A DNA stretch of 53,328 nucleotides from a virus (taxonomy: Duplodnaviria > Caudoviricetes), in IMG/VR virus record IMGVR_UViG_3300047480_000319, positions 1 through 53,328 of that record; one strand, 5' to 3'. Below are positions 26,071-51,280 of this stretch, in pieces. Both the position numbers and the translations under genes were made by a program. A model generated the notes under the pieces. The model worked only from the letters and a program-made list of their open reading frames with translations. It searched no databases and was not told where the DNA came from. The stretch's first letter is position 1, and every line of letters begins with the position of its first letter.

Positions 26071-26801
26071 TATTTTTTCTCCAATGCTACGGCCCAGCCG
26101 TTATTTTCAAATATAAATGTATTCTTAATTTTAGTAATGTTGTAATTTCCGATTGACTTAGTAAGATATAGTACTTCTGCAATATCTTTACTTTCTATCA
26201 TTATCGGACCTTTAATAGATTCGTATACTTTGTTCTTTGGACCACTACATACAATATTAAAAGTTTGCGGCTCCATACGAACACGTGTAAATCGAATAGA
26301 TTCACTTAACAGTTGAATATTATCAGTATAGCTATTAGAAAAGAAATTAGTAAAATTCTCCATATAGAATCTTTCAGTTGCATCGTCATACGAATCAACA
26401 TCTATAGGAATAATCTTTTCTAAATTTTCAATAGTTGCATCGTAACTAGTAAATCCTTTAAAGTATCTGAATCTAAAATTATCAATTCCGGTAATAACTT
26501 CTAAACCGTTTAGTACTTCTCTAATTTGATCCGGAGCATGTCTTGATCGTTCTAATTCAACGTATACTTTGTACACGCTATCATCAGTTTCTCCCGGACT
26601 TACATCTGCATCTAACACAAAGTTATAACCCATTTCGATAAAATGTTCCATATCTTTTGCAGGGTCTTCTTCTTTTACAGTAAAGCTAAGTGTGATAATG
26701 TCCTTGTCATCGCCGATCTTACTTTTATATGAATCAACTTCAAACACTTTATCAACAAAGTGACGTAAATCTTTAGCTTTTAAATTTTCTTTAATGATCA
26801 T
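26070..26801 (-). CDS. Hypothetical late protein
   Basis: 243-aa ORF preceded by TATAAATA. Confidence 0.75.
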   Translation of the reverse strand: MIIKENLKAKDLRHFVDKVFEVDSYKSKIGDDKDIITLSFTVKEEDPAKDMEHFIEMGYNFVLDADVSPGETDDSVYKVYVELERSRHAPDQIREVLNGLEVITGIDNFRFRYFKGFTSYDATIENLEKIIPIDVDSYDDATERFYMENFTNFFSNSYTDNIQLLSESIRFTRVRMEPQTFNIVCSGPKNKVYESIKGPIMIESKDIAEVLYLTKSIGNYNITKIKNTFIFENNGWAVALEKK

Positions 26802-26808
26802 ACTTTTT

Positions 26809-26816
26809 TATTTATA
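26809..26816 (-). promoter_or_regulatory. T4-type late promoter TATAAATA
   Basis: Exact match; the core TAAATA also recurs before genes at 5063, 11225, 14112, 18403, 19589, 27441 and 51328 (-) and 27489, 51354 and 51649 (+). Confidence 0.65.
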
Positions 26817-27411
26817 CCGATGGTGCAATGCCGCCTGGTGCAGCCATTCCGCCCCCTGCCGGAGCCATTCCGCCTGGTGCAGCAGAAGGCATTCCTCCCG
26901 GAGCCATAGGTGCAGCTTGTTGAGGCATCGCTGCTTGTGGCAATGTTGCGGGTGCCGAATCTTCGAGATCTTCTCTCTGCTCGCTCTTTAGCTTGTTCAT
27001 ATATCCTCTAAAGATATCGAACGCTACTTTTTTAGGCATTTGAATCTCAACAATCCAAATTGGATGTCTATCAAGTTTTCCTTTCTTAGTTCCAGGTCGA
27101 TAGTCAGATGCACTTTCGATCTTTCTTGGTTCGACTAGATTTGATTTTTCGTATATAACCCGACAACCTAAATCAGTTAATCTTTTTGCAGCAGTAGGAT
27201 TAGGCATCTTATCTCTAGGCCACATAAATCCTGCGGTAATCCAATGTCTATCTACTTGAGGACCATATGCTAGTTCACCGTCATACCAGTTTTCGTATGC
27301 ATACATATCCAATACATCTAAAACTCTCTCAAAGTCCTTTAACACTGAAAGATTAGTATTGTTTTCGTAGATTCCTTCGATGTTTCTAATAACTTCTAAA
27401 ATATCATACAT
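26812..27411 (-). CDS. Hypothetical protein with an Ala/Pro/Gly-rich tail
   Basis: About 200-aa ORF; start set at ATG 27411 (MYDILEVI). Confidence 0.75.
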   Translation of the reverse strand: MYDILEVIRNIEGIYENNTNLSVLKDFERVLDVLDMYAYENWYDGELAYGPQVDRHWITAGFMWPRDKMPNPTAAKRLTDLGCRVIYEKSNLVEPRKIESASDYRPGTKKGKLDRHPIWIVEIQMPKKVAFDIFRGYMNKLKSEQREDLEDSAPATLPQAAMPQQAAPMAPGGMPSAAPGGMAPAGGGMAAPGGIAPSV

Positions 27412-27498
27412 AATTGATTCCAATTTACTTATACTTATTTAGCTGGTTTAAAAACATAACATAGCAGTTTACTTTTTAAATTATCGCTTAAATACTTT

Positions 27499-27571
27499 GT
27501 AGGACCTCTGTAGTTATCGGGCGGTCACTACATGTCCTACTTTACTATTAGAGTAGGAGATATAAACTACA
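27499..27571 (+). promoter_or_regulatory. Structured phoH leader with alternative RBS-sequestering folds
   Basis: GTAGGAC/GTCCTAC and TGTAGT/ACTACA stems compete with TCCTACTTT/AGAGTAGGA over the SD. Confidence 0.55.
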
Positions 27572-28290
27572 TGAGTAAAAGAGTAAAAAAGCGTTTTACA
27601 TCAGAAGTTCAAGTAATTGATTTTAATCAGCCTTACATTCCTCAAAAGAAACACCGTGTTGTTCTTACACCACGCGGTTCTAATCAAAAAGCATATTTAA
27701 ATTTGTTAAAAGATGACACAAAGAATATTGTATTTGCGATCGGTCCTGCTGGTACAGGTAAAACACTTTTAGCCGTATTACACGGAATCAAATTGTTCCA
27801 AGAAGGGATTGTGGACAAGATTGTAGTTACAAGACCCGCCGTATCCGTAGATGAAGATTTAGGATTTTTGCCAGGTACCTTAAATGAAAAAATGGCACCG
27901 TGGACAAGACCTATATTTGATGTTTTTGCGGAGTATTACCACAAGAAAGAAATCGATAAGATGTTAGAAGAGGGAGTTATTGAAATAAGCCCGTTAGCAT
28001 ATATGAGAGGACGTACCTTTAAAAATGCATATATTGTTGCGGATGAGATGCAAAATGCAACAATTAATCAAATGAAAATGCTATTGACCCGATTAGGAGA
28101 AAATAGTAAGATGGTTGTTACAGGAGATTTAGCACAAGCAGATAGACTTAATGATAATGGTCTAATTAATTTCTGTGGCCTACTCGCAGAAAATCCTGCA
28201 CTAAAACATATTGATCTAGTGCAGTTTGATCATAAAGATATTGAACGACATGAAGCAGTTAAGGAGGTGCTTTCGATCTACGGAGACTAA
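27571..28290 (+). CDS. phoH: PhoH-family ATPase
   Basis: GPAGTGKT, TRPAV, LGFLPG, YMRGRTF, DEMQN and GDLAQAD motifs; start reassigned to ATG 27571 after AGGAG. Confidence 0.95.
   Translation: MSKRVKKRFTSEVQVIDFNQPYIPQKKHRVVLTPRGSNQKAYLNLLKDDTKNIVFAIGPAGTGKTLLAVLHGIKLFQEGIVDKIVVTRPAVSVDEDLGFLPGTLNEKMAPWTRPIFDVFAEYYHKKEIDKMLEEGVIEISPLAYMRGRTFKNAYIVADEMQNATINQMKMLLTRLGENSKMVVTGDLAQADRLNDNGLINFCGLLAENPALKHIDLVQFDHKDIERHEAVKEVLSIYGD

Positions 28291-40390: not shown

Positions 40391-40391
<1 letters not shown>
39903..40391 (-). CDS. Baseplate/tail-fibre connector-like protein
   Basis: INIGLNPNDRSGDLIRTAFDKVNQNF gp9/gp10-like N-terminus. Confidence 0.6.

Positions 40392-51280
<10,889 letters not shown>

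Follow-up and report, generated by a model that had tools for sequence, protein, structure and literature searches.

Two mutually exclusive, covarying helices in the phoH leader of a freshwater jumbo-phage fragment, a candidate two-state switch of translation

The stretch of DNA analyzed here, 53,328 nucleotides (nt) long and referred to as the window, is the entire IMG/VR virus record IMGVR_UViG_3300047480_000319 (Duplodnaviria; Caudoviricetes), whose completeness is estimated at 14%. Large relatives of this phage measure 259–400 kb, so the window is a fragment of a jumbo phage, and the source group is uncultured freshwater jumbo phages. Within it, phoH stands as a lone plus-strand gene among minus-strand neighbors, with virion structural genes and an endolysin gene on one flank and dCMP deaminase and clamp-loader genes on the other. 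Upstream of its start codon lies a leader that contains two mutually exclusive helices, both of them conserved and both covarying among relatives. We think it probable, though by no means certain, that these belong to the exclusive ON and OFF folds of a two-state leader that governs phoH translation.

A first-pass annotation, made from the sequence without database searches, had drawn both folds, and our reading of 27200–27800 recovered every complementarity that it listed. In fold A, an outer helix of 7 base pairs (bp) joins GTAGGAC (segment S1) to GTCCTAC (segment S4) around a 6-bp inner helix of TGTAGT with ACTACA and an apical pairing of ATC with GGT around GGGC (Table 1). In fold B, S4 pairs with the arm that carries the Shine–Dalgarno (SD) sequence, hereafter the SD arm; the helix as first drawn, 27535–27543 with 27550–27558, has 9 bp with one G–U, and a tenth pair, A27544–U27549, closes a 4-nt loop. 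Six nt (27535–27540) are common to both helices, and the folds are mutually exclusive, as had been claimed. The surrounding 102 nt (27489–27590) have a minimum free energy of −29.3 kcal/mol (z = −4.1), and 0 of 200 shuffles were as stable. Suboptimal folding bears out only part of the original picture: the core of fold B belongs to the minimum-energy fold of the leader, and fold A is not the predicted ground state. That minimum-energy fold combines the fold B hairpin with a 5' hairpin, fold C, that the first-pass annotation lacks.

Table 1. Features of the phoH leader and its surroundings, in window coordinates
Feature	Position	Strand	Remark
GTTTAC, −35-like word, a weak feature	27467..27472	+	16 nt upstream of TAAATA
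TAAATA hexamer, putative −10-like promoter core of phoH	27489..27494	+	recurrence and spacing in leaders
Segment S1 (GUAGGAC), 5' arm of fold A, mimic of the SD arm, putative first bases of the messenger RNA	27499..27505	+	
Inner hairpin of fold A (27509–27514 with 27527–27532; 27516–27518 with 27523–27525; apical loop 27519–27522)	27509..27532	+	
Fold C partner of 27499–27510 (predicted only)	27518..27531	+	part of minimum-energy fold
Segment S4 (GUCCUAC), shared anti-SD, used as 3' arm in fold A and as 5' arm in fold B	27534..27540	+	
Fold B hairpin (27535–27544 with 27549–27558; loop 27545–27548), burying AGGA of the SD	27535..27558	+	
SD sequence AGGAG	27555..27559	+	GGAG invariant in 83/83 rows; 11 nt before ATG 27571
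phoH coding sequence, 239 amino acids, PhoH-like P-loop ATPase	27571..28290	+	PHROG 170, E = 7e-74

Relatives of phoH made it possible to ask how these folds have been kept. Of 419 candidate stretches from an IMG/VR search, 418 encode a PhoH relative, and the best 80 per query were used; the best 80 of the 418 share 79–90% protein identity with the window phoH, and the regions upstream of the gene are strikingly alike among these close relatives. No near DNA relative was found among GenBank phages. We worked with two alignments, A1, with 83 rows (82 distinct leaders and the window), and A2, which holds 100 of 105 close-clade leaders and was fitted to fold A. Mean pairwise identity in the fold A columns is 90.5%, as against 52.4% at codon position 3 and 87.1% at positions 1 and 2 of phoH (79 rows, 3,081 pairs); judged from such comparisons, the leader is under strong purifying selection. 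Within the close clade, hardly any change is seen in the inner hairpin of fold A or in its unpaired bases, and one subgroup turns fold A into a nearly continuous stem of ~20 bp. The apical loop of fold A varies in length, and the loop of fold B is hypervariable in both length and sequence in A1. An in-frame ATG at 27532, named by the first-pass annotation as a start that would count against its proposal, occurs in only 8 of the 83 rows and is missing from 75; we therefore reject it and place the phoH start at 27571. Protein similarity begins at residue 1 of the 27571 frame (or 2, or 4 at a contig end) in all 80 of the 80 loci kept.

Across these phage phoH leaders, both folds are conserved with compensatory double changes, a check that the first-pass annotation had itself named. 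Fold A is paired in 98.9% of cells in A1, with 2 pairs (3 cells) changed on both sides, and in 98.5% in A2, with 13 double-change cells in 4 pairs and a covariation score reached in 0 of 500 shuffles. The values for fold B are similarly high: 97.2% paired with 9 double-change cells in A1, and 96.8% with 10 such cells in 3 pairs in A2, the covariation score again being reached in 0 of 500 shuffles of either alignment. Within fold A, S1 and S4 pair in 99.1–99.6% of cells and the inner hairpin in 97.6–98.8%, one of its pairs having changed from U–A to G–C in 8 rows of A2. Sliding the 3' partners by 1–3 columns in the 83 rows lowers pairing to 20–60% for fold A and 49–65% for fold B. Unguided, RNAalifold returns fold A as the consensus of A1.

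The kinds of change are informative as well. In A1, 169 of 1,328 fold A cells and 81 of 738 fold B cells are G–U wobbles, and only 14 and 21 are non-pairs, which places the pairing at the RNA level and on the plus strand, because the same changes would be mismatches on the other strand. Substitutions within S4 are transitions that retain a pair or a wobble with both of its partners. Beyond the SD sequence itself, the GUA flanking GGAG and the CUUU/AGAG extension of fold B are conserved or covary. Two other candidate pairings fared differently. The complementarity between TGTAGTT (27509–27515) and AACTACA (27565–27571), which had been thought to tie up the A of the AUG, exists in the window; we rejected it as a conserved feature, as it is paired in 64.4% of cells and its G–C pair is present in 3 of 83 rows. 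Fold C is paired in 96.2% (A1) and 95.6% (A2) of cells with zero compensatory changes, and the changes that are present break it; with RNAalifold preferring A, we also rejected fold C as the true 5' hairpin in place of A and retain it only as the structure in which S1 is predicted to rest when the leader is OFF.

Searching with PhoH proteins of greater divergence extended the comparison to clades that are 63–73% identical to the window protein. This deeper set yielded a leader from 299 of 311 loci, and 143 of these leaders are distinct. In 122 of the 143, S1 and S4 form at least 6 of 7 pairs while S4 and the SD arm form at least 5 of 7. Double changes in the S1:S4 helix run in several directions, from G–C to A–U (leaders L038 and L059), A–U to G–C (L149), U–A to C–G (L232 and L237) and, in a clade whose genes start with TTG (L365, L364 and L350), U–A to A–U. 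L365 has changed all three segments in concert, reading GAAGGAC, GUCCUUC and GAAGGAG where the window reads GUAGGAC, GUCCUAC and GUAGGAG, with both pairings kept; L364 and L350 share its S4 and SD arm and carry further wobble-compatible changes in S1. Compensation also occurs in the S4:SD-arm helix of fold B, from C–G to U–A in the clade of L324 and L326. The inner hairpins, by contrast with these segments, are wholly different between clades, unrelated hairpins taking the place of inner fold A. Leaders L354, L322, L340, L336, L366 and their relatives contain two identical GUCCUAC 7-mers (S4) each, which gives the 5' segment two perfect partners, one early and one late; the choice is the same and is built differently.

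The element is confined to this one place. With a covariance model of the leader (R1), the window yields a single strong site, which scores 89.2 bits; second comes the same place on the opposite strand (20.8 bits), and the rest score at most 11.7 bits. Each of five large relatives, one of them 94% complete, also has one strong R1 site (5/5), and a search with a 15-nt word at 3 mismatches matches the leader only. A short degenerate pattern run against IMG/VR also matched unrelated coding sequence; among the matches listed, whole leaders precede phoH or reach a contig end (for example, L115, L119 and L166). The leader is a single-copy cis element of phoH, and we rejected the idea of a regulon operator with extra copies on the strength of the one copy per record. 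An Rfam 15 cmscan of 27000–28000 on both strands, at E up to 10, gave no match overlapping 27489–27575; the four matches within that range are weak, at 14–17 bits against gathering scores of 50–80. In the PA5oct phoH region R1 has no match, the best score being 9.2 bits inside the gene. The literature, searched at the level of titles and the beginnings of abstracts, contained no paper on a phoH leader RNA. What precedes phoH is a cis-regulatory RNA that is real and had not been described before; its mechanism is of a known kind.

Being isolated on the plus strand, phoH needs a promoter of its own: the gene upstream (26812–27411) is on the minus strand, as are the downstream genes, and there is no plus-strand gene upstream from which transcription could be read in. 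The first-pass annotation had called phoH one of the few plus-strand genes, and the plus strand indeed holds 7 of the 53 crude open reading frames (ORFs) of the window. TAAATA looks like a late-type promoter core of this phage; it resembles the T4-type late promoter core. It stands 8–100 nt upstream of 12 of the 53 crude ORFs, including two adjoining structural genes, where ~2.6 would be expected. The leader hexamer is TAAATA in 137 of the 143 distinct leaders and TAAGTA in 6, a count that is partly circular because leader extraction demanded the hexamer. Its distance to the first base of the 5' hairpin is 5 nt in 125 leaders, 4 nt in 17 and 3 nt in 1. The combination GTTTAY-N15-18-TAAATA occurs once in the window (27467..27494); words like GTTTAC are visible by eye in close relatives, and none are seen in distant clades. 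A scan of 27300–27700 for sigma-70-type promoters and intrinsic terminators found neither. From the hexamer spacing, we infer that the phoH messenger RNA (mRNA) starts at or next to G27499, 4 nt past TAAATA.

On this basis, the leader (27499–27570) would be the phoH mRNA's 5' untranslated region and could work as follows. In the ON state, S1, as a copy of the SD arm, would pair with S4 around the inner hairpin, so that the anti-SD is locked away in fold A and AGGAG is free. In the OFF state, S4 would pair with GUAGGA of the SD arm, and CUUUA with UAGAG would lengthen this helix, the whole hairpin having about −11.5 kcal/mol; S1 would re-pair locally in the predicted fold C. Because all parts of fold A are transcribed before the SD arm, fold A should form first and open a short translatable window, which strand exchange to fold B would then close. 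The outcome would be a low, time-limited or condition-tuned output of PhoH, and the base-paired 5' end of the ON form would also slow mRNA decay. This order of folding, together with its effects on translation and mRNA stability, is our model of the leader rather than an observation.

Thermodynamic predictions are in keeping with such an order. In transcripts cut before the SD arm, S1:S4 is part of the minimum-energy fold of 104 of 106 close-clade leaders; at full length, 39 of the 106 are predicted to keep S1:S4 and 61 to have S4 paired with the SD arm. The minimum-energy fold of the growing window transcript is C at 34 nt, A at 42–58 nt and C with B from 60 nt. Calculated as pure structures on the 87-nt leader RNA 27499–27585, fold A has −18.5 kcal/mol, C with B −26.9 kcal/mol and the inner hairpin of A with B −18.6 kcal/mol, the 10-bp core of fold B alone contributing −11.5 kcal/mol at 37 °C. 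With an RNA thermometer in mind, the predicted OFF advantage over fold A is 7.0 kcal/mol at 42 °C and, growing with cooling, reaches 16.6 kcal/mol at 5 °C, without a crossover.

Several considerations weigh against a two-state leader. The window itself is predicted to be 98% OFF, with constrained ensembles, S1 first, of −22.2 kcal/mol for A and −27.4 kcal/mol for B. Over the 83 rows, the A–B difference has a mean of +0.9, a standard deviation of 2.2 and a range of −5.6 to +5.3 kcal/mol; 4 rows were artefactual, the constraints having forced non-standard pairs in them. The barrier on a direct path from A to C with B is estimated at ~8 kcal/mol at 10–37 °C, so that a kinetic window would last seconds at most. 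Fold C supplies a large share of the OFF-state stability and is without covariation. Having been fitted to fold A, A2 gives counts that lean to fold A, and the 5' end of phoH is placed solely by the spacing from TAAATA. In several distant clades, the match of S4 to the SD arm is down to 4 of 7 positions, or the SD can be covered by a separate UCC word, leaving the 5'-terminal hairpin as the sole universal feature. Finally, shuffling the interior of single leaders reproduces the three-way match in 0–20% of cases for clean leaders and in 3% for the window; it is thus on recurrence and compensation that the argument mainly rests, and not on any one sequence.

One rival is a static leader, in which fold A would be a 5' stabilizing stem-loop and the SD hairpin an independent fixed brake on translation or a by-product, the two not interconverting to any functional end. 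A hairpin 3–5 nt after TAAATA is the one feature found in every clade, the SD of many distant leaders can find a partner in a separate UCC word without disturbance to the 5' hairpin, and the wide variation in the A–B energy difference suits such an arrangement. However, a stabilizing hairpin has no need of an S1 that resembles the SD arm, yet 122 of 143 leaders have this likeness; nor does a plain SD need the GUA flank and the CUUU/AGAG extension that are nonetheless conserved or covarying, and in L365 all three segments were altered together. We consider a static leader unlikely. A DNA-level origin of the repeats is scarcely credible, whether as the inverted repeats of an operator for a dimeric DNA-binding protein or as a chance palindrome. 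Their position just downstream of a promoter-like hexamer would be typical of an operator, but G–U-compatible transitions, which are asymmetries in DNA, dominate over non-pairs (169 and 81 cells versus 14 and 21), the compensatory changes preserve pairing and not sequence, and the z score of −4.1 against shuffles leaves little to chance.

What would set the ratio of A to B, if the leader does switch, can be weighed in the same way. A phage or host protein might do so by binding one conformer; the candidates are PhoH, an RNase III-type enzyme that acts on the long stem of fold A, and a translational repressor. In favor, there are PhoH relatives that act on RNA, the close clade has kept the inner hairpin with its unpaired bases almost unchanged, one subgroup has made a nearly continuous stem of ~20 bp out of fold A, and an activator would make sense given a predicted equilibrium that is OFF in the window. 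Against this, folds A, B and C between them pair almost all bases that are invariant in the close clade, so that alternative pairing alone can account for the conservation; the inner hairpin is not kept between clades; and one copy per genome is not what a regulon operator would show. A protein-operated switch seems to us rather improbable. A metabolite riboswitch, in which fold A is an aptamer whose ligand stabilizes S1:S4 and turns translation on, has some architectural appeal: the exclusive helices, one of which sequesters the SD and both of which covary, are those of a riboswitch-type expression platform, a closing helix that sequesters the anti-SD is a translational ON platform, the predicted ground state is OFF, and the inner sequence is strongly conserved in the close clade. 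Yet the leader lacks an Rfam match at E up to 10, the would-be aptamer is an irregular hairpin of simple form whose apical loop varies in length, and inner fold A is kept in the close clade only, being swapped for unrelated hairpins in clades that retain S1, S4 and the SD arm. This difference between clades speaks against a shared ligand pocket, and we hold a riboswitch to be very improbable; it argues for a switch made of structure only, which probably acts co-transcriptionally. More specific proposals for the two-state leader, namely a self-contained co-transcriptional device in which the choice of S1 between an early partner and S4 reads polymerase speed or nucleoside triphosphate supply, or one remodeled by the PhoH ATPase, strike us as decidedly improbable in that particular form. 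The two-state interpretation thus stands in part as first proposed: its architecture, with two covarying helices that share six nt, holds up, the pairing to the A of the AUG does not, and the triggers first named, a ligand or PhoH, gained no support.

The closest mechanistic precedents are the MS2 maturation-gene leader (PMC4615214) and the lambda cIII mRNA (PMC4166951). In MS2, an earlier-forming hairpin sequesters a segment and allows brief translation, and both structures are conserved; there the genome is RNA, the inhibitory pairing spans a cloverleaf and the trap was shown by mutants. The phoH leader belongs to the mRNA of a double-stranded DNA jumbo phage, its early structure is the whole 5'-terminal hairpin, and its predicted closed form is a local 10-bp hairpin with a low estimated barrier (~8 kcal/mol). 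Lambda cIII has two exclusive conformers, one of which exposes the ribosome site, and their equilibrium sets the rate of translation; its structures include coding region and respond to temperature. The phoH leader has no sequence or structural homology to it and differs in that a 5'-terminal SD mimic and the real SD compete for one anti-SD segment. The cIII conformers were reportedly first described by Altuvia et al. in 1989. In the T4 genes e, soc, 49 and I-TevI (PMC3014915), the SD is likewise sequestered by an upstream segment in a large virulent phage, with a TATAAATA-like late promoter motif nearby, whereas the T4 late promoter lies within or after the 5' arm of the inhibitory hairpin, late transcripts lack that arm, and the promoter that fires decides the outcome. 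In the phoH leader S1 and all other arms come downstream of TAAATA (27489–27494), the preceding gene is encoded on the opposite strand, and an anti-anti-SD segment is part of the transcript itself.

Two further kinds of RNA share parts of this logic. In translational ON riboswitches, of which the adenine-sensing add leader is one, the anti-SD is part of the helix that closes the 5' domain, and formation of this helix frees the SD. The phoH leader, compared with these, has no ligand pocket conserved across clades and no Rfam match. In toxin mRNAs of the hok type and of the aapA1 type (for aapA1, PMC6733600 and PMC5416894), an activator element at the 5' end pairs with the anti-SD box; competition for the anti-SD decides whether the ribosome site is open, and successive metastable folds arise during synthesis. 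These mRNAs need 3' processing and an antisense RNA, and they control a toxin.

Conservation of the leader beyond that of the non-synonymous sites of its gene shows strong selection, in this group of uncultured freshwater jumbo phages, on how much PhoH is made or when. Few auxiliary genes of aquatic phages are as widespread as phoH, which serves as a marker gene, and we know of no established role for it in infection. The leader is a compact RNA of ~60 nt with two conserved exclusive folds and can be tested in vitro; with it, the few leaders in which evolution supports both conformers would gain a family carried by phages. Three clades with the same logic and different sequences offer a natural variant set for RNA strand-exchange switches. 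Should PhoH remodel the leader, a phage PhoH would for the first time have a known natural RNA substrate and a known autoregulatory loop, which would give a direct handle on the task of the protein during infection.

The PHROG 170 profile matches residues 25–237 of the phoH product and spans its P-loop ATPase core. The closest GenBank PhoH, from the Pseudomonas phage PA5oct group, is 57% identical. Residues 1–24 (27571–27642) form a basic N-terminal tail, MSKRVKKRF..., which both the PHROG and the PA5oct alignments exclude by beginning at residue 25; similarity within the close clade runs from residue 1. In PA5oct (L209, MK797984.1), phoH is likewise a lone gene, inverted between structural genes, and its upstream region (1208–1383, 176 nt) has TAAATA followed after 6 nt by a predicted 7-bp hairpin; this leader is not homologous to that of the window. 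The available part of the PA5oct report gives TATAATA/TTGAC promoters and does not mention PhoH (PMC7318152).

TAAATA sites upstream of other ORFs in the window include 26814, 27441, 35504 and 51328 on the minus strand and 51354 and 51649 on the plus strand. Most ORFs preceded by the hexamer have short unstructured leaders, phoH being the one with a long structured leader. The minus-strand copy next to phoH (27436–27441) lies ~25 nt upstream of the ATG at 27411 of the divergent virion structural gene and 18 nt upstream of the listed TTG at 27423, and the 159-nt intergenic region may hold two back-to-back promoters. By far the largest ORF of the window in the crude map (40391–51277, minus strand, ~3,600 codons) has TAAATA 51 nt upstream. 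A 65-codon plus-strand frame rich in Cys, His and Arg (26794–26991) lies antisense to the virion structural protein's low-complexity Ala/Gly/Pro/Met tail (26812–26990, minus strand) and is probably a by-product of repeat composition.

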